From NCBI RefSeq assembly GCF_003334255.1, contig NZ_QOWU01000008.1: a stretch of DNA of 64,000 nt. One strand, written 5' to 3'. The translations under genes were made by a program, and so were the position numbers. The stretch comes from Escherichia coli (GTDB lineage: Bacteria > Pseudomonadota > Gammaproteobacteria > Enterobacterales > Enterobacteriaceae). The notes beneath the pieces were generated by a model. It saw only the letters and a list, made by a program, of their open reading frames with translations, ran no database searches and was not told the DNA's origin. Below are positions 2,302-61,106 of this stretch, piece after piece; within the stretch, counting starts at the first letter, position 1, and each line of letters starts with the position of its first letter.

Positions 2302-3717
2302 ATGGCAGGAAATAAACCCTTCAACAAACAGCAGGCTGAACCCCGCGAACGCGATCCACAAGTTGCCGGGCTGAAAGTGCCTCCGCACTCGATCGAAGCG
2401 GAGCAGTCGGTGTTGGGCGGTTTAATGCTAGATAACGAACGCTGGGATGATGTAGCCGAGCGTGTGGTAGCAGACGATTTTTACACCCGCCCACACCGTC
2501 ATATCTTTACTGAAATGGCGCGTTTGCAGGAAAGCGGTAGCCCTATCGATCTGATTACTCTTGCGGAATCGCTGGAACGCCAGGGGCAACTCGATAGCGT
2601 CGGTGGTTTTGCTTATCTGGCAGAGCTGTCAAAAAATACGCCAAGTGCGGCTAACATCAGTGCCTATGCGGACATCGTGCGTGAACGTGCCGTTGTCCGT
2701 GAGATGATCTCGGTTGCGAATGAGATTGCCGAAGCTGGTTTTGATCCGCAGGGGCGTACCAGCGAAGATCTGCTGGATCTGGCTGAATCCCGCGTCTTTA
2801 AAATTGCCGAAAGTCGTGCGAACAAAGACGAAGGGCCGAAGAACATCGCCGATGTGCTCGACGCAACCGTGGCGCGTATTGAGCAGTTGTTTCAGCAGCC
2901 ACACGATGGCGTTACCGGGGTAAACACCGGTTATGACGATCTCAACAAAAAAACCGCTGGCTTGCAGCCGTCGGATTTGATCATCGTCGCCGCGCGTCCG
3001 TCGATGGGTAAAACAACATTTGCGATGAACCTCGTCGAAAACGCGGCGATGTTGCAGGATAAACCGGTACTTATCTTCTCGCTGGAGATGCCATCAGAAC
3101 AGATCATGATGCGTTCTCTGGCGTCGCTGTCGCGCGTTGACCAGACTAAAATCCGTACCGGGCAGCTCGATGACGAAGACTGGGCGCGCATTTCCGGCAC
3201 CATGGGTATTTTGCTCGAAAAACGCAATATCTATATCGATGACTCCTCCGGCCTGACGCCAACGGAAGTGCGTTCCCGCGCACGCCGTATTGCCCGTGAA
3301 CACGGCGGCATCGGGCTTATCATGATCGACTACCTGCAACTGATGCGCGTACCGGCGCTTTCCGATAACCGTACGCTGGAAATTGCAGAAATCTCTCGCT
3401 CGCTGAAAGCACTGGCGAAAGAACTGAACGTGCCGGTGGTGGCGCTGTCCCAGTTGAACCGTTCTCTGGAACAACGTGCCGACAAACGCCCGGTCAACTC
3501 CGACCTGCGTGAATCTGGCTCTATCGAGCAGGATGCGGACTTGATCATGTTTATCTATCGTGATGAGGTGTATCACGAAAACAGTGATTTAAAAGGCATC
3601 GCGGAAATTATTATCGGTAAACAACGTAACGGCCCAATCGGGACGGTACGCCTGACCTTTAACGGTCAATGGTCGCGCTTCGACAACTATGCGGGGCCGC
3701 AGTACGACGACGAATAA
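2302..3717 (+). CDS. dnaB: replicative DNA helicase DnaB, 471 aa
   Basis: Translation contains Walker A (ARPSMGKTTFAMN) and the conserved DnaB C-terminal RecA-like domain. Confidence 0.95.
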   Translation: MAGNKPFNKQQAEPRERDPQVAGLKVPPHSIEAEQSVLGGLMLDNERWDDVAERVVADDFYTRPHRHIFTEMARLQESGSPIDLITLAESLERQGQLDSVGGFAYLAELSKNTPSAANISAYADIVRERAVVREMISVANEIAEAGFDPQGRTSEDLLDLAESRVFKIAESRANKDEGPKNIADVLDATVARIEQLFQQPHDGVTGVNTGYDDLNKKTAGLQPSDLIIVAARPSMGKTTFAMNLVENAAMLQDKPVLIFSLEMPSEQIMMRSLASLSRVDQTKIRTGQLDDEDWARISGTMGILLEKRNIYIDDSSGLTPTEVRSRARRIAREHGGIGLIMIDYLQLMRVPALSDNRTLEIAEISRSLKALAKELNVPVVALSQLNRSLEQRADKRPVNSDLRESGSIEQDADLIMFIYRDEVYHENSDLKGIAEIIIGKQRNGPIGTVRLTFNGQWSRFDNYAGPQYDDE

Positions 3718-3769
3718 TAATTATTTTATGAATTAGGTAATTAAAGCAAACACTTATCAAGGAACACAA

Positions 3770-35094: not shown

Positions 35095-37242
35095 TTACGC
35101 CAGTGCCGCTTCGCGCAGGCGAGTTTTCAACTTGTTGTACTCGTCAATCACGTACTGCTCGGCGGCGCGCTGATCGGCGATCGGCTCGACGCGAACGGCG
35201 CAGTATTTGTACTCCGGCGTTTTCGTAATCGGGCTTAAGTTTTCGGTAACCAGCTCGTTACAGGCACCAATCCACCACTGGTAGGTCATGTAAATCGCCC
35301 CTTTGTTCGGACGATCGCTGACCTGCGCACGGGTGATAATTTTGCCTTTACGCGAGTGCACCCAAACCAATGCCTCATCTTCAATACCCAGACGTTTGGC
35401 GTCTTCGGTATTGATTTGTGCGTAGCCAGGTTCATCAGCCAGCGCCGCCAGTGCCGCACAGTTACCGGTCATCGAACGGCAAGAGTAGTGACCAACTTCA
35501 CGCACCGTTGACAGTACCATCGGGTACTCGTCGGTGAGTTTGTCGATTGGCGCTACCCAGTCGCAGGTGAAGAACTGCGCCAGACCGTTCGGGGTATCAA
35601 ACTTCTCTTTAAACAGATAAGAAGTCCCCTGATCGGCATCTGAAGTATCGCGGCAAGGCCACTGAATGAAGCCCAGTTCGCCCATTTTCTCGTAAGTCGC
35701 ACCGTAGAAATCCGGGCACAGATGACGCAACTCATCCCAGATCTCCTGGGTGTTGTTGTAGTGCATCGGATAACCCATACGGGTGGCGATTTCACTGATG
35801 ATTTGCCAGTCCGTTTTCAGATCCCATTTCGGTTCAACCGCCTTGAAGAAACGCTGGAAGCCACGGTCAGCCGCAGTAAACACGCCTTCATGCTCGCCCC
35901 ACGACGTTGACGGTAAAATAACATCCGCCGCCGACGCGGTTTTGGTCATAAAGATGTCCTGAACGATAACCAGTTCCAGATCTTCAAAGGCTTTACGTAC
36001 TGCCGACAGCTCCGCGTCAGTTTGTAGCGGATCTTCGCCCATAATGTACGCGGCACGCACTTCGCCATGCGCTGCGCGGTGCGGCAGCTCGCTGATGCGA
36101 TAGCCGGTATGCGCTGGCAGGCTTTCCACGCCCCAGGCTTTGGCGAATTTCTCGCGGTTAGCCGGATCTTTCACGTACTGGTATCCCGGATACGTATCCG
36201 GCAGCGCGCCCATATCGCAGGCACCCTGAACGTTGTTCTGACCACGAACCGGGTTAACACCCGCATGCGGCTTACCGAGGTTACCGGTCAGCATCGCGAG
36301 GCTGGTCAGAGAACGCACGGTTTCCACGCCCTGGTAGAACTGGGTTACACCCATGCCCCACAGGATGGCGGCGCTTTTCGCCTGGGCATACATCCGTGCC
36401 GCCTGACGAATCTCACTGGCGCTGACGCCGGTGATATCTTCAACCGACTCCGGCGTGTAGCCTTCAACGATTTTACGATACTCTTCAAAGCCTTCTGTAC
36501 GTGAAGCGACGAACGCTTTGTCGTACAGATTTTCTTCAATAATGACATGGCCCATCGCATTCAACAGCGCGATGTTCGAGCCGTTTTTCAGTGCAATGTG
36601 CATGTCAGCAATGCGCGCGGTTTCAATTTTGCGCGGATCGCAGACGATAATTTTCGCCCCGTTACGTTTAGCGTTAATTACGTGATTCGCCACGATTGGG
36701 TGGGAATCCGCCGGGTTGTACCCGAAAACGAACACTAAATCGGTATTATCAATTTCGTTAATAGCATTGCTCATTGCGCCATTACCGACCGATTGGTGCA
36801 GACCTGCAACCGATGGGCCGTGTCAGACACGAGCGCAGCAGTCAACGTTATTGGTACCAATAACGGCGCGCGCAAATTTTTGCATTACATAGTTGGTTTC
36901 GTTACCCGTACCACGCGAGGAGCCGGTCGTCTGGATGGCATCCGGACCGTACTTCTCTTTGATGGCGCTCAGGCGCTCGGCAACGTAATTCAGTGCCTCA
37001 TCCCAGGAAACAGGTTCGAGTTTGCCGCCACGCTGGCGACGGATCATGGGGGTTTTCAGGCGCGGGGTCAGGATCTGGGTATCGTTAATGAAGTCCCAGC
37101 CATAATAACCCTTCAGACACAGGGTACCCTGGTTGGTTTTCCCCTGCGCTGCCTCCGCCCGGACGATTTTGCCGTTATCGACGACCAGGTTGATTTTGCA
37201 ACCTGATGCGCAATAGGGGCAAACCGTGACGACTTTTTTCAT
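35095..37242 (-). CDS. fdhF: formate dehydrogenase H, selenocysteine-containing molybdoenzyme (715 aa)
   Basis: Track ORFs 36823..37242 and 35095..36774 are one reading frame joined by TGA at 36823..36825; N-terminal Fe-S motif CPYCASGC; 2148 nt is 716 codons. Confidence 0.95.
36780..36822 (-). promoter_or_regulatory. SECIS recoding element directly 3' of the fdhF UGA codon (extent approximate)
   Basis: Bacterial SECIS lies immediately downstream of the Sec codon (established); the stretch after TGA is GC-rich and hairpin-prone. Confidence 0.65.
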
Positions 37243-37293
37243 CGGTCTCGCTCCAGTTAATCAAATCACGCATACGCGCTCTCGACTACAGTA

Positions 37294-37309
37294 TGCATCT
37301 TTTATGCCA
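37294..37309 (-). promoter_or_regulatory. sigma54 (-24/-12) promoter of fdhF: TGGCAT-N5-ATGCA
   Basis: Reverse complement of 37294..37309 is TGGCATAAAAGATGCA, about 50 bp upstream of the fdhF ATG; inverted TGACGAAA-type motifs at 37360..37410 are a candidate FhlA UAS. Confidence 0.7.
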
Positions 37310-37439
37310 CATTTTATGTGGGGTCATTCCCTGATATTACGGGCACTATTTATTCAAAACTCTGACGAAAAACAGGCTGTCGTCAGTTTTGACGTGACGA
37401 AACGAAATACCGCGTGACAGCCATCACGCGGCAGACATT

Positions 37440-38906
37440 TTATTTTTTCTCGACGACGGGACCTGCCTGATACCCGCCGCCCAGCGATTTCATCAACTGA
37501 ATGCTTTGGATCACCCGGCGGCTGTCCAGCATCAGTAATGACATCTCTTCGGCAAGCACTGGCAACCGGGCTTCGGTGGCCTGTAAGCGGCTGGTTAAGC
37601 CGCGCTGATAGGCGGCCTCGGCAGCGCGCTGGGTAAAGCGCGTGGCTTCCACGCGTTCAGCCTGCATTTCTCGCTCGTCGTTGAGCGTTTGCAGACGCGT
37701 GCCGTTGACGGCAACGTCACGCACCGCGTTCAGTACTGACTGGTTGTAACGTTCAATCATCATGTTGCTGGCGGCGCGCGTGCCTTCGAGATTGGCATTC
37801 AACCGTCCACCGTCAAACAGCGGCAATTTCAGACCCGGGATGAAGTTGAACTGGCGACTGGTTTTTTTGAATAAGGTATGCAGATGGATGGAGTCCAGAC
37901 CGAAAAACGCTTTGATATCAAAGCTCGGATAGAACAACGCCCGCGCGGAATCCACCTGATCTAATGACGCCTGAACATACCAGCGCATGGCTTGCAGATC
38001 CGGGCGTCTGGCGAGCAACTCATAAGAGAGTGTCGCCGGAATGCCGGTCTGGACTTGCGGTAATGCCACCGGTCTGATCTCCGGCATATCGCTGGCTCCC
38101 GCGCCAATCAATGCACGCAGAGATTCTCGCGTTTCGGTGATTTGCCCTTTGACGGCAACAATTTGTTTATCGACCGCCAGAATCTGTGCCCGCGCGCCGT
38201 GGAAAGGCACTTGCGCTTCCAGACCGTGCGCCACTTTACTCTGGTGCGCTTTCACCGCGTAATCAATCACATCGTGAGTTTGTTCTAACAGATCGAGCAT
38301 CTGATAGCTGGCCTGCATACTGTAATAAAGCTGCGCTACGCCCGTGGCCAGCGATAGCTCTACTGCTGCGGTTTCTGCCAGCGCGGCATTATGCGCGCCA
38401 ATGGCGGCGGCAACCGCTGAGCGATGCACACCCCACAAATCAAGATCCAGTCCGGCAAACAAACCTACTGTGGCTTCCGTATAGTACGGCCCGTCCATAC
38501 CCAGTGCTGGCGCATCCATTGAATAAGGGCTTAAAAAGCCGTTCGCCGAGACACGTTGGCGGTTGAGCATCCCTAACGCTGCGACCTGTAATTGTGAACC
38601 GGCATCTAACAAATCGGCCTGGGACTGCGCTTTTTCTTCCCGCAGTTTCGCTTCGGCGAGGGTGTGTGAACCACTTAGCGTCCGTTGGATCAGCGCATCC
38701 AGCTGCGGGTCATTGAGTTGTTTCCACCACTGCGCCTGCGGCCAGCCGGAGCTGGCAAGATGAATATCGTCGGCCAGTTTGATTTGTTCCGGTTTGAGCT
38801 GTTGATGAGGTGCAGAATCCTTACGTACCAGGGCACAGCCGGAAATCAGCGTCGTGCTGCCGAGAATGCTGCACAACAGCAGACGTGAAAGTTGACGATT
38901 GATCAT
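37440..38906 (-). CDS. mdtP: outer-membrane factor (TolC-like) of a tripartite efflux pump (488 aa)
   Basis: Lipoprotein signal (LISGCALV) and OMF-family repeats; last gene of the ytcA-mdtNOP cluster. Confidence 0.88.
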   Translation of the reverse strand: MINRQLSRLLLCSILGSTTLISGCALVRKDSAPHQQLKPEQIKLADDIHLASSGWPQAQWWKQLNDPQLDALIQRTLSGSHTLAEAKLREEKAQSQADLLDAGSQLQVAALGMLNRQRVSANGFLSPYSMDAPALGMDGPYYTEATVGLFAGLDLDLWGVHRSAVAAAIGAHNAALAETAAVELSLATGVAQLYYSMQASYQMLDLLEQTHDVIDYAVKAHQSKVAHGLEAQVPFHGARAQILAVDKQIVAVKGQITETRESLRALIGAGASDMPEIRPVALPQVQTGIPATLSYELLARRPDLQAMRWYVQASLDQVDSARALFYPSFDIKAFFGLDSIHLHTLFKKTSRQFNFIPGLKLPLFDGGRLNANLEGTRAASNMMIERYNQSVLNAVRDVAVNGTRLQTLNDEREMQAERVEATRFTQRAAEAAYQRGLTSRLQATEARLPVLAEEMSLLMLDSRRVIQSIQLMKSLGGGYQAGPVVEKK

Positions 38907-40954
38907 TGCGTGGCTCCTTGTGCCTGTTCCGTGGCGGGCGTTAATGCCGGGGCTGTCCAGTCTGGCAAGCGGGCGAAAAGCTGGCAGACGTGTTGCTCCT
39001 GTTTTAATAAGGTGGGCAGGATGGCCTGAGAGGCGGGTGTCTCTTCAAGCGTTATTTGAGGAGAACGGCTGAGTGCGGTTGCCAGACCGGCAGCGTATTT
39101 CTCCAGGGCGTCGGCAAACTGACCTGCTCTGTCCGGCTGTAGTGCGTTATCCAGCGCCTGCGCCGAGTTCCAGGTGGCATCCCAGGCGTGAAGAAGATCG
39201 CGGCCCTGACGAATAACCGTTTGCGAACGTTCAATCAGTAATGCGCGTTCTTCGCTGTCCAGTTGACGCTCCAGCGCCACGCGTTGGCACATCTCTTCAC
39301 AGGCATTAAACGCCGCATGCAGACCGATACGAATTTGCAGATAAGTGCGCAGAGCCGTGACTTCCTGCTGGCGTGGGATCCGCATTACTTTACTTAACAT
39401 ACCCAGCGTGCCAGCCAGTTTTTGCGGCAGTGTGCGCGCTTCACTTTCAGGCCAGACAAAGGTGTAAATCACCGCGGACACCACGGTACCAATGATGATA
39501 CCCAGGGCGCGATCGCGAATTTCCACCAGGTCGTACACTGGGCCAAAAACGTTTTCGAGCGTGGCGAGCGCGAAGGTGACCACCATCTGTGTGCCGATAT
39601 AAGAAGAGCGTTCAGAGCTGGTGGCAATCCATGCGCCCAACAGGAAAATCGGTGCCAGCACAAACAGCAATTCGACAATATTGTCCAGCCAGGGCATGAC
39701 CAGTAGCGTGAATAACAGCGCCAGAATCGCGCCGCAAAAGGCCCCGCCAAAACGCAGCACCATCTTCTGGTACGACGAACCGACATTTGGGTTAGCGACG
39801 ATCACGCATGTCAGCATACAGGTGTGAATGCCTTCCCAGTCCACGCCGCTGTAAAAGGTGTAACAGATCAAACAGGCGAGCAGCGTTTTTACCGCGTAGC
39901 GCATATAGTCTGGATTGGTAAAAGCATCGGCGGCCATTGATGGCGGTTTGGCTGCGGGCGTTGGCGGCGTATTCGGGTCCATCTGACCCAGTTGTAACAA
40001 CGTCTGGCAGATATTCTCCAGGTTACATTCCCGTGCCGCCATCGCTTCACTTTCACTGATCCGCCAGTCGCTTTGCCAGCACTGACCTTCAGCAACGGCA
40101 TGCTGCAGCTTGTTGATTTCTGAAGCTAATTTTTGTCGGAATTCAATAATTGCCTGAGAATCAGCAAAAGAGGTGGGATCGTAGCGATTCAGCGTCGAGT
40201 AAATGTAGGTTACCGTTGCCACGCAGCTTTGCCACCATGCGTTTTGAGTTCGCCAGTTGGCATCGTCCGCGAGGCAAAAGACATTGAGTTTTTGTAGCGC
40301 CAGCGCCTCTCTTTCAATCCGCGTTTCGGGTAGCGGTGCGAGGCTGTCTGTCAGGTGACTAATGGCATCATCAAGCCGATCATTAAGCGCCTGATGCATT
40401 TGCGAAATGGCACGACTGGGAAACCACAGCACGCCGATTAACGTCATCAGCAAGGTTGGATAGAGGCCAACAACGATACACCACAGCGTTAAGCGCACGA
40501 CCACTTCCGGATAGTCGAGCATGGCGGGGAAGGTTTGCCCGTAAATAGCGACAATGGCGACGGCGAAAAAGACCAGCCCCAAGCGATGGGTGCGCATCAA
40601 AAACATGCAGCCCATCAGGATCGGTCCGGCGATGATCAATCGGATCAACGGTTCGCCGTATGACCATTTGTAGATCAAAAACAGGCTGCCGATCTCCAGC
40701 ACCGTGGCAACCACAAACAAGATCGCGACAAATTTGGTGTAAAACGCGTTCGACTGAATACCGTAAAACAGCACTGCCAGCGATAACGCCACAAAAGGGA
40801 TCTCAAAGGTCATCGAGATCAGAATCACCAGCAGGCAGCCTACCCAGAGTTGCACGGTCTGTGGCACGCGACCTGGTCGCCGCTCGCTTAACTCTTCATG
40901 AAAGAACGCCAGCAGCCTGACCACCGGTAATGGCAGGGAGTTGAGCGCGCTCAT
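38903..40954 (-). CDS. mdtO: aromatic-acid-exporter-like inner-membrane efflux component (683 aa)
   Basis: Two hydrophobic bundles separated by a soluble domain; 4-bp overlap with mdtP. Confidence 0.85.
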   Translation of the reverse strand: MSALNSLPLPVVRLLAFFHEELSERRPGRVPQTVQLWVGCLLVILISMTFEIPFVALSLAVLFYGIQSNAFYTKFVAILFVVATVLEIGSLFLIYKWSYGEPLIRLIIAGPILMGCMFLMRTHRLGLVFFAVAIVAIYGQTFPAMLDYPEVVVRLTLWCIVVGLYPTLLMTLIGVLWFPSRAISQMHQALNDRLDDAISHLTDSLAPLPETRIEREALALQKLNVFCLADDANWRTQNAWWQSCVATVTYIYSTLNRYDPTSFADSQAIIEFRQKLASEINKLQHAVAEGQCWQSDWRISESEAMAARECNLENICQTLLQLGQMDPNTPPTPAAKPPSMAADAFTNPDYMRYAVKTLLACLICYTFYSGVDWEGIHTCMLTCVIVANPNVGSSYQKMVLRFGGAFCGAILALLFTLLVMPWLDNIVELLFVLAPIFLLGAWIATSSERSSYIGTQMVVTFALATLENVFGPVYDLVEIRDRALGIIIGTVVSAVIYTFVWPESEARTLPQKLAGTLGMLSKVMRIPRQQEVTALRTYLQIRIGLHAAFNACEEMCQRVALERQLDSEERALLIERSQTVIRQGRDLLHAWDATWNSAQALDNALQPDRAGQFADALEKYAAGLATALSRSPQITLEETPASQAILPTLLKQEQHVCQLFARLPDWTAPALTPATEQAQGATQ

Positions 40955-41985
40955 TATTGCGGCTCAAGATTAGCGACTGCCGAAGCGCCGATGCGGAACA
41001 TTTCCGGGTCAGGTTTATCGACCATGATTTTGACCGGAAAACGCTGGGCAACGCGGACCCAGTTAATAGAACGAGACACTTTCGGCAGGCCGCCCAGCAC
41101 CAGGCCGCCGTCATCCGGTAGCACGCCGTAGCCAATCGAATCCACTTTACCCTCGAAGGTTTTGCCGCTGTCACTCATCAGGCGAATCGTTGCGGGTGTA
41201 CCTGAGCGAATATTTTTCAGATCGGTTTCGCGGAAGTTGGCGATCACATACCAGTGACGAGTGTCGATTAGGGTAAAAATAGGGCGCATGGCAGAAGCAA
41301 ATTGCCCGACGGAGGTTTTGAGGGAAATGACCCGGCCATCAAACGGCGCGCGAACGGTCGCCATTTCCAGATGCAGTTTGGTCAGGGCAATATCCGCTTC
41401 GACCGCCGCACGCTGGGCAACTAATGCATCCACGCCGCTGACGGCGCTGGCGGCTGACTGCGCCTGTAACAATACGGCATTAAGATCCGCTTCTGCGGCG
41501 CGCTGCGCCGTTCTTGCACGGTCAACATCTTCCGCTGAGACAAAACCTTCTTTCAGTAATGGCTCGGTGCGGCGTAATGTATCTGTGGCCTGTTTCGCGG
41601 CGGCACGGGCTTTTTCTACCGTGGCATTAACCGAGTCGGCACCAAACTGTTGCGCGTCAACGCTACGCTGGGTGAGCATAATTTGCTTATCCAGCGCCGC
41701 GAGGGAGGCTTCAGCTTTCGCCAGATTGGCTTCGTACGGGCGCGGGTCGATGCGGAACAGCAAATCGCCCTGTTTGACTGCCTGGTTGTCGGTGACCGCC
41801 AGTTCTACAATGCGGCCGCTGACTTCCGGTACCACATCAATGGTATCTGCTGACGCGTAAGCGTCATTAGTTGATGGCGCACTGTCTACGCGCCAGATAA
41901 CGAAAACAAGGGCAACCAGCGCCAACGCAACCACTAACAGAGCAGGGAATTTACTGCGAGGAGCTTTTTTCGGCGTACTTTCCAT
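40954..41985 (-). CDS. mdtN: membrane-fusion (periplasmic adaptor) protein, HlyD family (343 aa)
   Basis: N-terminal TM anchor and coiled-coil/beta-barrel adaptor architecture; TAATG stop/start overlap with mdtO. Confidence 0.88.
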   Translation of the reverse strand: MESTPKKAPRSKFPALLVVALALVALVFVIWRVDSAPSTNDAYASADTIDVVPEVSGRIVELAVTDNQAVKQGDLLFRIDPRPYEANLAKAEASLAALDKQIMLTQRSVDAQQFGADSVNATVEKARAAAKQATDTLRRTEPLLKEGFVSAEDVDRARTAQRAAEADLNAVLLQAQSAASAVSGVDALVAQRAAVEADIALTKLHLEMATVRAPFDGRVISLKTSVGQFASAMRPIFTLIDTRHWYVIANFRETDLKNIRSGTPATIRLMSDSGKTFEGKVDSIGYGVLPDDGGLVLGGLPKVSRSINWVRVAQRFPVKIMVDKPDPEMFRIGASAVANLEPQ

Positions 41986-42003
41986 GAGCGCGTCTCAAAT
42001 AGA

Positions 42004-42279
42004 TTAGAAAAATGCCAGCCAGAACAGCATGGCGTAGAGAGCAAAAAGGGCGGTATAAATAATTCCGACAAATGCCAGATTGATATTTGCCCGCTGAATA
42101 ACTCGCCTCGTGATGAGCGTCAAAATAAGGCTGGCAATGGCGCAGAAAAACCAGCTGGGATAATAAGCGCCGATCACCGGGATTGCCGAAGATAATGAGC
42201 ATCCCGAAACCATGAAGACGGGAATTATCCAGGCTGTTTTTTTGAGTTGCATCGCCATGCGAGAGAGAACTGTTGGCAT
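42004..42279 (-). CDS. ytcA: small lipoprotein/membrane protein at the head of the mdtNOP operon (91 aa)
   Basis: ORF 42004..42327 trimmed to MPTVLSRMAMQLKKTAWIIPVFMVSGC (lipobox-like). Confidence 0.6.
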   Translation of the reverse strand: MPTVLSRMAMQLKKTAWIIPVFMVSGCSLSSAIPVIGAYYPSWFFCAIASLILTLITRRVIQRANINLAFVGIIYTALFALYAMLFWLAFF

Positions 42280-42450
42280 ATTAAATACATCCTGTCTGCT
42301 GCGAACAATATCTGTAGTGAATATCAATATCCATTGAAGGCGTCAGTATGGCTATTTTCTTGATGAATAAAAATAGCTTTATTCAGCCACCGCATTCATA
42401 ACTTATATATTTTATTTATTAATTGGCTGTATATATTTTTAAAATAAATA

Positions 42451-42478
42451 CTTTTGGGGGCTTCAGCGCCCCCAAAAG
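42451..42478 (-). terminator. hairpin downstream of yjcS
   Basis: CTTTTGGGGGcttcagcgCCCCCAAAAG inverted repeat about 10 bp after the yjcS stop. Confidence 0.65.
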
Positions 42479-42487
42479 CGAGTGACA

Positions 42488-44473
42488 TTAATTTGGGGTT
42501 ACGATATTCACCCACAAATCGAAATTATCCAGACAGGCGATAATTTCTTCCAGTTTCGCGCCATTGCCAATAATTTTGGCTTTCTTCGCTTTTACCAGAT
42601 CCGCCATTTTGGCTTGTCCGGTCAGCACGGCGTGCAGATCTTCACGGCTGATGTAGAAAGAGGCGTCGGCTTGCGGTTGCAGCGTTTTCCGGTAGTTAAG
42701 CACGCTATCGTTCAGCGTCAGGTTGAGGTTATCGCCGTTGCTCATATTGAAGTTCAGGCTGATATTTTTACCCGCAGCTTTCGCGCTATCGAGGCGAACG
42801 GCCATAAAGTCGAACAGCATTTCGACCGACATCCCGCGAATGGTGTCCGGGGAACCGGTGGTGCCGTGGCTGAACTTATGCACCCCTTCGCGCAGCTCTT
42901 TCGCGCCGGTCAGGTAGAAACCGCGCCATGTGGCGGACTCGGCCTGATAGCCCAGCTGTTCAAAGTTATTCGCTTGCAGATTCTTCGCGACCTGGTCACC
43001 CGGGTTGGCGGCAATCACCTGTTTCAGCAGTTCTGCCGACCAGCGGTAATCACCTTGCTTGTTCGCTTCTTGCGCCAGGTTGATGACACGGGCAGAACCG
43101 CCCAGCGCCTGCACGTAACGTTTACCCATCTCCACCTGACCATACGGATGCAGGTTAGCCGGGTTACCGTCGTAATAGCCAAGATAGAAGTTATACACCG
43201 CGCGGGCGTTGTGGCTGACAGAACCGTAATAGCCGCGGCTGGCCCAGTTATTGGCAAGTGCAGGCGGCAGCTTAATCATGTCGCCGATTTCATTCATGGT
43301 GTAGCCCTGGTTCGCCAGGTGCAGGGTCTGGTCGTGAATGTACTTGATGGTATCGCGGTATTTACCAATATAATCATTGATATGCTTATTGCCCCAGACC
43401 GGCCAGGTGTGCGGCATAAACAGCACTTCCGCGTCGTTACCCCACATATCCAGCGTTTCGTTCAGATACTCGGTCCACTTGCTGGTGTCGCGGGTTTTCG
43501 CGCCGCGCAGAGTGTAGAAGTTGTGCAGGGTATGCGTGGCGTTCTCGGCGGTACACAGGGCTTTCAGGGCCGGAATATAGAAGTGCATTTCGGCTGGCGC
43601 TTCGCTACCTGGGGTCATCAGGAAGTCAAACTCCAGGCCGTCGATAATCATCTTCTCGCCAGTTCTGACGATAGTTTTCGTCGGTGCAATAATGCTCGGG
43701 TCGCCCGTTGCCAGCGTCACGCCAAGGCCATTACCCACATTGCCTTGCGCGTTGTGCGGCAGTAACAGACCGTAAGAGTAGAGCGCACGGCGGCTCATGA
43801 TGTTACCCGCCAGCACGTTTTCGCTGATGGCTTCGTCCATAAAGCCTGCAGGGGCAATCACCTGAACTTTGCCGGATTTAACATCGGCTTCAGAGATAAT
43901 GCCTTTCACGCCACCATAGTGGTCGGTGTGGCTGTGAGTGTAGATAACGGCAACAATCGATTTTTGCGGACGATGCTGGAAGTAAAGGTCAAGTGCGGCT
44001 TTTGCGGCAGGCGGCGTCACCAGCGGGTCGATAACAATAATGCCTTTCTCGCCCTCAACGAACGTAATGTTAGAGATATCCTGGCCGCGCACCTGATACA
44101 TTTTATCGGTGACTTTGAACAGGCCAGAAATACCGTTGATTTGCGACTGACGCCACAGGCTGGGGTTTACGGTTTCCGGCGCTGCGGCATTAATATCAAA
44201 TTTGTAATCGTCCGCGCGGTAGTAAACTTTACCGTTCGCATCACGCAGAATACCTTCATCCAGCAGCGGGGCGATAAATCCACGCTGGGCATCGTCAAAA
44301 TCCTGACGATCGCTAAACGGTAATGATTTGGCGTAATTCTGATTAACCTGTTGGGTATATTGAGTGGCGGCTTTCGCTTCCTCTTTCGCGTTAGCGGTAT
44401 TTACCATCATGCCGCTGGCGGCAGTTAACGCAATAACAATCCTGCTCAAACGGAATAACCGAGAGTTATTCAT
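42488..44473 (-). CDS. yjcS: secreted alkyl/aryl-sulfatase, metallo-beta-lactamase fold (661 aa)
   Basis: Signal peptide; HxHxDH metal motif ([11 protein letters not shown]); C-terminal SCP2-like domain. Confidence 0.85.
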
Positions 44474-60318: not shown

Positions 60319-61106
60319 TCAGATAAAGTGCTTACGCAACCGTTGAGAGAGGAAATCCAGCAGGCTGACCGTGACGATGATAAGCACCATCAGGGCGCAG
60401 GTTTGTTGGAACTGGAAACCGCGAATCGCTTCCCACAGGGTGACGCCGATCCCGCCTGCGCCGACCATGCCGACGACGGTCGCCGAGCGGACGTTGGATT
60501 CGAAGCGATAGAGGGAGTAGGAGATCAGCAGTGGCATCACCTGTGGCAGCACGCCGTAGAGGATCTCTTCGAGCTTGTTGGCACCGGTGGCGCGAATGCC
60601 TTCCACCGGGCCGGGTTCAATCGCTTCCACCGCTTCGGAAAGCAGCTTGGAGAGCACGCCGGTGGTGTGGATAAACAGCGCCAGCACGCCAGCACGCCAG
60701 CGAACGGGCCGAGGCCGACGGCGACCACGAACAGCATGGCGAAGACCATTTCGTTAATGGCGCGGCAGGCGTCCATCAGGCGGCGAACGGGCTGGTAAAC
60801 CCACCACGGCACCAGGTTTTCGGCGCTCATCAGGCCAAAGGGGATGGAGAGAACCACCGCCAGCGCGGTGCCCCAGACGGCGATTTGCAGCGTGACGGCC
60901 ATTTCGGTGAGGTAATCCTGCCACTGGCTGAAATCGGGCGGGAAGAAGTCGGCGGCGAACGTCGCCATGTTGCCGCCGTCTTTGATCAGCGTAAGCGGGG
61001 CCATTTCCGCGCCCTGCCACGAGACGACCAACACGGCGAGTACAACGGCCCAGCTCAGAAGCGAGAACCAGCTGCGCTTGGGTGGGGCGATGGTGATGGT
61101 TTGCAT
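60319..61106 (-). pseudogene. phnE: phosphonate ABC transporter permease PhnE, frameshifted by an extra 8-bp tandem repeat unit
   Basis: Two overlapping ORFs (60537..61169 and 60319..60687) in frames offset by 2; three 8-bp units at 60678..60701; removing one unit restores a single frame of about 260 codons. Confidence 0.8.
60678..60701 (-). repeat. 8-bp tandem repeat x3 inside phnE (minus strand GCTGGCGT GCTGGCGT GCTGGCGC)
   Basis: Plus strand GCGCCAGCACGCCAGCACGCCAGC; coincides with the phnE frame break. Confidence 0.9.

Follow-up and report, generated by a model that had tools for sequence, protein, structure and literature searches.

ytcA-mdtNOP of Escherichia coli: a four-gene cluster around an ALMT-like FUSC protein, with a putative role in the export of anionic weak acids

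We analyzed a gene cluster in a 64,000-nucleotide stretch of an Escherichia coli genome (contig NZ_QOWU01000008.1), referred to here as the window. In megablast searches, positions 37000-42700 of the window were 100% identical to E. coli K-12 MG1655 with 100% query coverage. Of 5426 complete E. coli genomes, 5420 gave a match, and coverage reached at least 80% in 5388. The cluster is the named and annotated ytcA-mdtNOP of E. coli K-12 (older names YjcRQP and SdsRQP), the same locus for all four genes, and is already known, not a discovery. The RefSeq annotation and the open reading frame list were concordant for ytcA, mdtN, mdtO, and mdtP, all on the minus strand, and the reported span of 37440-42279 has the mdtP stop codon and the ytcA start codon as its exact ends, bearing out to the base the four-gene cluster of the preliminary description. 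The features identified were as follows.

42450..42479, minus strand: terminator-like hairpin of the upstream gene yjcS, with a 12-bp stem and a T-rich tail (pattern scan and sequence)
42280..42449, minus strand: AT-rich leader and presumed promoter region of ytcA (GC content and position)
42004-42279, minus strand: ytcA, 91 aa, small membrane lipoprotein
40954-41985, minus strand: mdtN, 343 aa, periplasmic adaptor (membrane-fusion protein)
38903-40954, minus strand: mdtO, 683 aa, inner-membrane protein of the FUSC/ArAE(PET) family
37440-38906, minus strand: mdtP, 488 aa, outer-membrane factor, a NodT-type lipoprotein
37408..37433, minus strand: terminator-like hairpin a few bases past the mdtP stop, with an 11-bp stem and a T-rich tail (pattern scan and sequence)

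The four co-directional genes are spaced by 18 nt (ytcA/mdtN), -1 nt (mdtN/mdtO, a 1-nt overlap in caaTAATGagc), and -4 nt (mdtO/mdtP, a 4-nt overlap in caATGAtc), with terminator-like hairpins on both sides. The TAATG and ATGA start/stop overlaps noted earlier are present in the sequence, and translational coupling may reasonably be read from them; a strong mdtP Shine-Dalgarno motif, AAGGAG, was identified within mdtO, 7 nt upstream of the start. In some natural Escherichia and Shigella isolates, mdtO carries nonsense or frameshift lesions that inactivated it independently, with mdtN and mdtP remaining intact; the K-12 copy of mdtO is intact.

The hairpin at 42450..42479 marks the upstream limit of the putative transcription unit, and that at 37408..37433 marks its downstream limit, before the fdhF control region. 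An Rfam hit to blv_FSE at 42455-42481 (E 0.38, under the gathering score) was rejected as a chance match to the yjcS hairpin. The 208-nt intergenic stretch upstream of ytcA has a GC content of 33%, compared with 53% for the whole window, and a promoter-pattern scan of the minus strand of the ytcA leader found no good sigma-70 consensus site. No regulator gene adjoins mdtNOP among the annotated neighbors. Activation of the operon by LeuO and antagonism of H-NS have been reported, and the operon takes its name from the efflux of sulfa drugs (Shimada 2009, cited in PMC11504656); a second, putative mdtP promoter has also been proposed, with the promoters of the operon described as experimentally unconfirmed in PMC11762307. 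In the explanation favored below, ytcA-mdtNOP is a four-gene operon with weak or no expression under laboratory conditions, expression probably hinging on relief of H-NS silencing by LeuO or on promoter-creating rearrangements.

The scores of MdtN, MdtO, and MdtP against their curated NCBIfam equivalogs lie far above the cut-offs, and the matches are not due to chance. MdtN scored 535 bits against its NCBIfam equivalog (cut-off, 376) and 419.7 bits against TIGR00998 (cut-off, 390.8), and was annotated with the Pfam domains HlyD_D23, CusB_dom_1, HlyD_3, and Biotin_lipoyl_2, which bears out the membrane-fusion protein claimed earlier and places it in the EmrA/EmrK/AaeA type. It shares 29% identity with AaeA (E 2e-35), and the Beta-barrel_AAEA domain was annotated in the adaptors of all relatives examined. 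Hydropathy placed a single hydrophobic segment at approximately residues 13-31, an N-terminal membrane anchor, and a lipobox was absent from MdtN. MdtP, likewise described previously as an outer-membrane factor, is a NodT-type lipoprotein with a TolC-like channel, with 1024 bits against its equivalog (cut-off, 597), 272.8 bits against TIGR01845 (cut-off, 210.05), and the lipobox L-I-S-G-C24. Among the known systems, MdtN belongs to the adaptor subfamily of EmrA and EmrK, with one N-terminal membrane anchor; however, EmrB is an MFS transporter, which MdtO is not, and EmrAB and EmrKY use TolC, whereas MdtNOP has its own outer-membrane factor. EmrAB acts on uncouplers, CCCP among them. Two related pumps, EmrCAB and VceCAB, are tabulated with such uncouplers as well (PMC8277102).

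We identified MdtO as a member of the FUSC family, with 1370 bits against its NCBIfam equivalog (cut-off, 821) and Pfam matches to FUSC (PF04632; i-E 1.3e-17, residues 170-537) and FUSC_2 (1e-7), along with a weak ALMT match. All of the full-length homologues listed carried PF04632, and nearly all also carried PF13515. This domain search agreed with the aromatic-acid-exporter type proposed from the sequence at the outset. The AlphaFold2 monomer model (pLDDT 92.6, pTM 0.90) returned ALMT1, ALMT9, or ALMT12 as each of its 10 top Foldseek matches, 8 at a probability of 1.0 and 2 at 0.99, and the MdtO family profile matched ALMT sequences at 4.9e-7 to 3.8e-5. The fold resembles that of plant ALMT/QUAC proteins and mycobacterial Rv2571c, with 6 transmembrane helices and a cytosolic helical domain per repeat, although sequence identity between MdtO and ALMT-type proteins is just 11-17%. 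Organic anions are the substrates of these proteins, and Rv2571c, a single-repeat bacterial FUSC protein, has been reported to work as an anion channel in the manner of ALMTs (bioRxiv 10.64898/2026.03.10.710584).

The two halves of MdtO (residues 1-335 and 336-683) aligned with each other in hhalign over 289 columns (probability 94.3%, E 9.5e-8), and plain BLASTP of half against half found no similarity. The secondary structure of the model contains two similar helix series, and in each repeat approximately 6 transmembrane helices lead into a cytosolic helical bundle. Two ALMT-like repeats in tandem, covalently fused, make MdtO a pseudo-dimer. Unlike MdtO, with its fused and asymmetric double repeat, ALMTs and Rv2571c have a single repeat and are described or modeled as homodimers, and they act alone in one membrane, without an adaptor or outer-membrane partner. 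R401 of MdtO aligns with R80 (TM3) of AtALMT1 and R482 with R165 (TM6), both being invariant across 104 homologues of 21-88% identity, and a near-invariant acidic residue, D481, adjoins R482. In the N-terminal repeat, R154 aligns with R482, and F80 occupies the R401 position, so that the TM3 arginine is missing. By alignment, both ALMT pore arginines, described as coordinating malate (bioRxiv 10.64898/2026.03.10.710584), are kept in the C-terminal repeat only.

The lead gene, ytcA, encodes a small lipoprotein, in agreement with the earlier reading, with the lipobox V-S-G-C27 and a Pfam Ytca match at 2.4e-14. YtcA also matched DUF1656 (i-E 0.0016), as did 3 of 5 of its relatives at E <=0.1, and aligned with E. 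coli AaeX at 37% identity over 63 aa (BLASTP, E 7e-5). Against AaeX family profiles, hhalign gave probabilities of 59-67% and E-values of 5e-5 to 1e-4, the best alignment (67%, E 5.2e-5) spanning nearly the whole of AaeX. The lipobox G-C was kept in 7 of 8 relatives; AaeX, unlike YtcA, has no lipoprotein signal peptide, and one Ytca-family member, L011, lacks the signal as AaeX does. Further, ytcA and aaeX occupy the same place, upstream of the adaptor gene. We interpreted the hydrophobic core after the YtcA lipobox as two membrane helices. YtcA is probably related to AaeX/DUF1656, from which its lipidation would set it apart; this homology is moderately supported. With this core and an added lipid anchor, the AaeX-like YtcA might act as an accessory subunit on MdtO in the inner membrane.

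The order of Ytca gene, AaeA-type adaptor, and FUSC gene was identical in all 7 distant loci examined, with the Ytca gene first in every one, differing flanking genes, and an annotated OEP gene adjoining in at least 6. With YtcA probably AaeX-like, the operon has the gene order of aaeXAB and adds an outer-membrane gene to it. AaeXAB, the E. coli p-hydroxybenzoic acid efflux system, is a gene-by-gene colinear paralogue (small membrane protein, adaptor, FUSC protein). MdtO and AaeB aligned across 157 aa at 24% identity (E 1e-4) and are very divergent. In contrast to mdtNOP, aaeXAB has no outer-membrane factor gene and has a divergent LysR regulator, aaeR. By their published descriptions, Stenotrophomonas FuaABC and the "tetrapartite" Burkholderia Bucl8-FusC-FusD-FusE resemble mdtNOP in joining a FUSC protein to an adaptor and an outer-membrane factor. 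Bucl8-FusCDE contains, in addition, a fourth protein that is small and DUF-type. The Burkholderia system differs from mdtNOP in gene order, with the outer-membrane gene first, and both FuaABC and Fus have dedicated inducible regulators, FuaR and FusR, with fusaric acid and p-hydroxybenzoate as demonstrated inducers or substrates. FusC-type pumps have been described as proton-motive-force dependent and ATPase-free (PMC3517613, PMC7682875).

On this evidence, we slightly favor an explanation, taken as a whole, in which ytcA-mdtNOP encodes a weakly expressed or silent, envelope-spanning FUSC/ArAE ("PET", TC 2.A.85-type) exporter of the same kind as AaeXAB, FuaABC, and Bucl8-FusCDE, and in which aromatic weak acids in their anionic form would be driven by voltage through MdtO into an MdtN-MdtP duct. 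A single anion-conducting pathway would lie at the interface of the two MdtO repeats, through which deprotonated hydrophobic or aromatic weak acids would leave the cytoplasm, candidates being sulfonamides, halogenated pyrrole or phenol protonophores, and perhaps aromatic acids made by the cell itself. The inside-negative membrane potential would provide the drive, approximately 140 mV supporting a roughly 200-fold gradient of a monovalent anion, so that export could proceed without ATP and not necessarily with proton antiport. MdtN, as an oligomer with a single N-terminal helix for its anchor, would seal MdtO to the MdtP trimer, and the substrate would therefore be released beyond the outer membrane. 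We infer the channel-like mechanism of MdtO from fold similarity and the conserved arginines only; ALMT-type channels are described in PMC6765260 as exporting organic acids with no coupling to protons, sodium, or ATP.

The phenotypes on record bear on this explanation in different ways, and the view that the physiological substrate is poorly defined agrees with the literature (PMC11762307). In a tolC+ clinical strain, mdtO deletion lowered the sulfamethoxazole MIC and had small effects on the chemically unrelated imipenem, streptomycin, and erythromycin (PMC6598151). In a tolC deletion strain, activated mdtOP raised resistance to protonophores of the armeniaspirol and pyrrolomycin types more than 16-fold, which mdtOP deletion reversed (PMC8672772). 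As cited in PMC11762307 and PMC8277102, the first phenotypes reported for yjcP and yjcRQP mutants concerned acriflavine, tetraphenylarsonium, and puromycin; these cationic or basic compounds do not fit an anion pathway.

Such cationic substrates would not readily pass along an anion pathway driven by voltage and would be easier to reconcile with the same architecture in which MdtO is a proton-coupled substrate/H+ antiporter working by alternating access, its ALMT likeness reflecting ancestry and not mechanism. D481, beside R482, could serve as the protonation site; the family is classed as an exporter in transporter nomenclature, and AaeAB is annotated as an efflux pump. The uncoupler CCCP abolishes FuaABC activity and the resistance that it mediates, FuaA having no nucleotide-binding domain (PMC3517613), but CCCP collapses both the membrane potential and the pH gradient, so this sensitivity cannot tell uniport from H+ antiport. 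Against an antiporter, the invariant columns of the 104 MdtO homologues include no pair of conserved carboxylates embedded in the membrane, such as RND and MFS antiporters have, the closest solved structures are all channels, and the anion channel behavior reported for a bacterial FUSC protein (bioRxiv 10.64898/2026.03.10.710584) points the same way. We regard the antiporter as unlikely.

Less probable still, in our judgment, is that most "MdtNOP" drug phenotypes reflect MdtP replacing a missing TolC for other pumps, such as EmrAB or AcrAB, with MdtO acting as a metabolite relief valve like AaeB; in PMC7682875, AaeAB is seen as a valve for metabolic efflux. In favor of this reading, MdtP is a complete factor of the TolC-like kind, the strongest phenotype was selected in tolC deletion strains, and the natural isolates with mdtO inactivated and mdtN and mdtP intact are compatible with it. 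Suppressors of tolC deletion strains in which ytcA and mdtN were deleted were still resistant, the phenotype needing mdtOP but not mdtN or ytcA (PMC8672772), and the full four-part assembly is therefore not required for it. However, armeniaspirol-selected mutants carried changes in mdtO itself (PMC8672772), mdtO deletion alone shifted MICs in the tolC+ strain, and the synteny of adaptor, FUSC, and OEP genes in distant lineages argues that the cognate partner of MdtP is MdtN-MdtO.

That MdtO is an RND, ABC, or MFS transporter and MdtNOP a conventional tripartite pump has practically no standing: it comes from the literature only ("RND efflux system" and "homologous of acrB" in PMC8672772; "major facilitator superfamily efflux pump" in PMC11762307; listed under MFS in PMC8277102 and PMC11504656) and was refuted by Pfam, which identified no ACR_tran, ABC_tran, or MFS domain in MdtO, and by Foldseek, which returned MFS structures only at probabilities <=0.10 and TM-scores <0.2 and no RND or ABC structures. 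The other NCBIfam matches of MdtO were solely to the FUSC-type YccS/YhfK models, and the AlphaFold2 secondary structure contains neither large periplasmic domains nor a nucleotide-binding domain. The preliminary claim that MdtO is neither RND nor ABC thus held against an ALMT-like predicted structure, and its label of "atypical" for the cluster is fair because published reviews place the operon under MFS or RND. No ATPase gene was found within the ytcA-mdtNOP operon in the open reading frame list or the RefSeq annotation. A PF00005 label on the homologues P0033 and P0034 was traced to longer fused or mis-assembled proteins, not MdtO.

Returning to the voltage-driven export of anionic weak acids, the explanation may extend beyond this locus. 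We tentatively suggest, as a possibility short of even likelihood, that FUSC-type pumps, including MdtNOP, AaeAB, FuaABC, and FusC, form a mechanistically separate class of tripartite exporters built on a fused ALMT-like anion channel in place of a coupled pump, in which the membrane potential alone would drive anionic weak acids, including protonophore antibiotics, across the envelope, and in which a small protein of the AaeX/YtcA type would serve the whole family as its fourth subunit.

Four minus-strand genes were identified concordantly by the RefSeq annotation of MG1655 and a mechanical ORF list:

42004-42279, minus strand: ytcA
40954-41985, minus strand: mdtN
38903-40954, minus strand: mdtO
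37440-38906, minus strand: mdtP

The preliminary description had placed the cluster at 37440-42279, and with these coordinates that interval is exact, its ends being the stop codon of mdtP and the start codon of ytcA. The two overlaps that it reported were both found in the sequence, 1 nt (TAATG) between mdtN and mdtO and 4 nt (ATGA) between mdtO and mdtP, and ytcA is separated from mdtN by 18 nt. In a megablast search of 5,426 complete E. coli genomes with window positions 37000-42700, 5,420 were matched, 5,388 of them with coverage of at least 80%, and K-12 MG1655 was among the strains with a full-length match at 100% identity. The cluster is MdtNOP itself, already known from the textbook annotation of E. 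coli K-12, so it does not represent a new discovery.

The Pfam search identified MdtO as FUSC-type (FUSC, 1.3e-17; FUSC_2, 1e-7; ALMT, sub-threshold) and returned no further match, in line with the aromatic-acid-exporter-like protein described before. A library of 1.84 billion representatives held 1,648 homologues of MdtO at E <=0.001, and 104 near-full-length sequences (21-88% identity) were aligned. The predicted structure of MdtO has a mean pLDDT of 92.6 and a pTM of 0.90. When this model was compared with the PDB using Foldseek, the best ten matches were all ALMT (AtALMT1, GmALMT12/QUAC1, and AtALMT9; probability 0.99-1.0), MFS transporters did not exceed a probability of 0.10, and no RND or ABC structures occurred among the matches. 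Independently of the model, the MdtO family profile matched ALMT among the PDB sequences across MdtO residues 358-654 (4.9e-7 to 3.8e-5); these are reachable by the family profile only, with a single-sequence search against PDB chains giving no match at E up to 1. No bacterial FUSC/PET transporter with a solved structure was present in the PDB copy searched. MdtO is therefore ALMT-like, with a canonical RND or ABC fold returned neither by Foldseek on the model nor by the family profile, so the interpretation in the preliminary description stands.

We identified an internal duplication in MdtO by profile-profile comparison of residues 1-335 with 336-683 (probability 94.3%, E 9.5e-8, 289 columns), visible by that method only, as the N and C halves showed no similarity by plain BLASTP. 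Each half comprises approximately 6 transmembrane helices followed by a cytosolic helix bundle in the predicted structure. An ALMT protomer has the same architecture as one such half, and ALMTs are homodimers with one central pore (bioRxiv 10.64898/2026.03.10.710584); thus, as modeled, MdtO is a covalently fused, asymmetric pseudo-dimer. Two ALMT arginines coordinate malate in the pore (bioRxiv 10.64898/2026.03.10.710584), and in the family profile alignment MdtO R401 aligns with AtALMT1 R80 (TM3) and R482 with R165 (TM6), with R401 and R482 invariant across the 104 sequences. In the N-terminal repeat, R154 is aligned with R482 by profile-profile comparison, and a phenylalanine occupies the TM3 position.

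The mdtO copy in the window (K-12) is intact. In 4 natural Escherichia/Shigella assemblies, mdtO is split into 2 ORFs by independent inactivating lesions that all differ (L013, 1258-3300; L014, 1169-3211; L015, 3089-5140; and L016, 3100-5140), of which 3 are premature stops at approximately amino acids 237, 231, and 278 and the fourth is an 11-bp deletion of nucleotides 898-908. All 4 lesions fall within the cytosolic domain of the N-terminal repeat, and mdtN and mdtP are intact in all 4 loci, which suggests recurrent loss of MdtO in natural Escherichia/Shigella.

The roles previously assigned to the other proteins were also borne out. MdtN scored above the curated NCBIfam cut-offs of both the MdtN equivalog and the EmrA/EmrK adaptor subfamily and contains HlyD-type barrel-sandwich and lipoyl domains with 1 N-terminal hydrophobic anchor. 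MdtP was identified as a NodT-type outer-membrane factor lipoprotein (TIGR01845, 272.8 against a cut-off of 210; lipobox LISGC24), and the lead gene, ytcA, encodes a lipoprotein (Pfam Ytca, 2.4e-14; lipobox VSGC27) for which NCBIfam has no model. The mature part of YtcA aligns end to end with E. coli AaeX, from the p-hydroxybenzoic acid efflux system AaeXAB, at 37% identity (BLASTP, E 7e-5), the profiles of the 2 families match with a probability of 67% (E 5.2e-5), and YtcA matches Pfam DUF1656 weakly (0.0016), as do 3 of 5 relatives at E <=0.1. Beside a distant MdtO relative, locus L011 encodes a 72-aa Ytca-family protein (3535-3750) that lacks a signal peptide and lipobox and begins at the conserved core; AaeX likewise has no lipoprotein signal, and the L011 form is a bridge between the YtcA and AaeX/DUF1656 families. 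YtcA and AaeX are probably homologous on these comparisons, and if so, ytcA-mdtN-mdtO would be colinear with aaeX-aaeA-aaeB, plus an outer-membrane factor.

We inspected the loci of 7 MdtO relatives that are 23-41% identical to MdtO in the alignment; the genes on either side of these loci are unrelated. The order Ytca, AaeA-type adaptor, and FUSC was found in all 7, with an adjoining OEP gene in 6; in the seventh, the OEP position is occupied by a gene that runs to the contig end. The start/stop overlaps are not kept exactly, with gaps ranging from -17 to +109 nt, and translational coupling is therefore no family-wide constraint. For the E. coli cluster, we infer translational coupling at the mdtN/mdtO and mdtO/mdtP junctions and co-transcription of ytcA-mdtNOP, both of which would follow from the gene layout. 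A pattern scan identified a terminator-like hairpin on either side of the cluster:

42479-42450, minus strand: terminator-like hairpin 3' of yjcS, 12-bp stem with a T-rich tail
37433-37408, minus strand: terminator-like hairpin 3' of mdtP, 11-bp stem

An AT-rich leader separates the yjcS terminator from ytcA, the 208-nt intergenic stretch 42280-42487 having 33% GC compared with 53% for the window. In the consensus scan, the coding strand of this leader gave no sigma-70-like site, and around the cluster 2 promoter-like matches were found against 4.0 expected by chance. The hairpins and the leader fit a putative 4-gene transcription unit with a poor promoter. LeuO activates mdtNOP and H-NS antagonizes LeuO, according to PMC11504656 (citing Shimada 2009), and the mdtNOP promoters are experimentally unconfirmed per PMC11762307. 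The low GC content and the missing sigma-70-like site are consistent with the reported H-NS silencing, LeuO activation, and poor laboratory expression. The sole coding-strand sigma-70-like site lies inside ytcA, upstream of mdtN (42160-42189, minus strand; TCGGCA-18-TATTAT, 9/12 matches), and is within the regional chance expectation. Between 36500 and 43000, Rfam gave no riboswitch or sRNA tied to the operon, its sole matches being the fdhF SECIS element and a sub-threshold chance match on the yjcS terminator. A functional tie to the neighboring yjcS (alkyl sulfatase) was rejected, given the intervening terminator and the other flanking genes in all 7 distant loci.

The remainder of the 64-kb window is an ordinary K-12 stretch from dusA to yjdN. 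The downstream neighbor, fdhF, appears as 2 ORFs (35095-36774 and 36823-37242) parted by an in-frame UGA, with the bacterial selenocysteine insertion element SECIS_2 present at 36776-36830 (minus strand; Rfam, 87.1 bits, E 1.8e-18). The gene is not a pseudogene; the UGA is the codon known to encode selenocysteine in formate dehydrogenase H. The mdtP-fdhF spacer (37243-37439) carries inverted repeats (GTCAAAACTGACGA ... TCGTCAGAGTTTTGA) right past the mdtP terminator, along with a TGGCAT-N5-ATGCA motif, which we take to resemble the FhlA upstream activating sites and sigma-54 promoter of fdhF. Farther away, the window carries the K-12 frameshift in phnE (approximately 60319-61106, minus strand), which the matching MG1655 record annotates as a pseudogene; this is the well-known K-12 phn defect, without connection to ytcA-mdtNOP.

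From the parts list and the MdtO fold, both established here, we infer the transport steps. Deprotonated aromatic or hydrophobic weak acids would exit the cytoplasm via MdtO through one anion pathway where its 2 repeats meet, with the inside-negative membrane potential as the driving force; MdtN would form the bridge from MdtO to the MdtP channel, and YtcA would be an accessory subunit in the inner membrane. On balance, we lean toward such a voltage-driven conduit. Export of organic acids by ALMT-type channels is not coupled to protons, sodium, or ATP (PMC6765260), the single-repeat bacterial FUSC protein Rv2571c reportedly behaves as an alpha-ketoglutarate anion channel (bioRxiv 10.64898/2026.03.10.710584), and the Stenotrophomonas pump FuaABC requires proton-motive force and has no ATPase (PMC3517613). 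Of the MdtNOP phenotypes, the better-defined ones are for weak acids, namely sulfa drugs (PMC11504656 and PMC6598151) and the protonophores pyrrolomycin and armeniaspirol (PMC8672772). However, the earliest phenotypes involve cationic dyes and puromycin (as cited in PMC11762307 and PMC8277102), and some of the MIC shifts are small and concern chemically unrelated compounds (PMC6598151). The CCCP sensitivity of FuaABC (PMC3517613) fits equally well the same architecture with MdtO as an H+ antiporter, which we consider a plausible but less probable arrangement. It is rather improbable that the main role of MdtP is to stand in for TolC with other pumps, a reading fed by tolC deletion suppressors that gained resistance despite deletion of ytcA and mdtN (PMC8672772), an observation that also counts against the conduit. 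An RND, ABC, or MFS identity of MdtO has almost no likelihood and was rejected, with Pfam matching FUSC-type only and the best Foldseek matches being ALMT.

Such labels nevertheless recur in publications, with MdtO called "RND" and "homologous of acrB" (PMC8672772) or "major facilitator superfamily" (PMC11762307) and listed under MFS (PMC8277102; PMC11504656, as "MdtNOP-TolC"). These classes are inconsistent and, on the present evidence, wrong; MdtO is FUSC/ALMT-type by Pfam and fold searches. Exporters of this kind, tripartite or tetrapartite, were described previously (AaeXAB, FuaABC, and Burkholderia Bucl8-FusCDE; PMC7682875, PMC3517613), as was the FUSC-ALMT structural link for Rv2571c (bioRxiv 10.64898/2026.03.10.710584), and the cluster is therefore already known in kind as well. 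The value of the check is that reviews and resistance-gene catalogues repeatedly mislabel MdtO as RND or MFS, when its fold is of the ALMT anion channel type. If MdtO is a voltage-driven anion conduit, this would explain the preference of these systems for aromatic weak acids and protonophores and would single out R154, R401, and R482 as residues to mutate.
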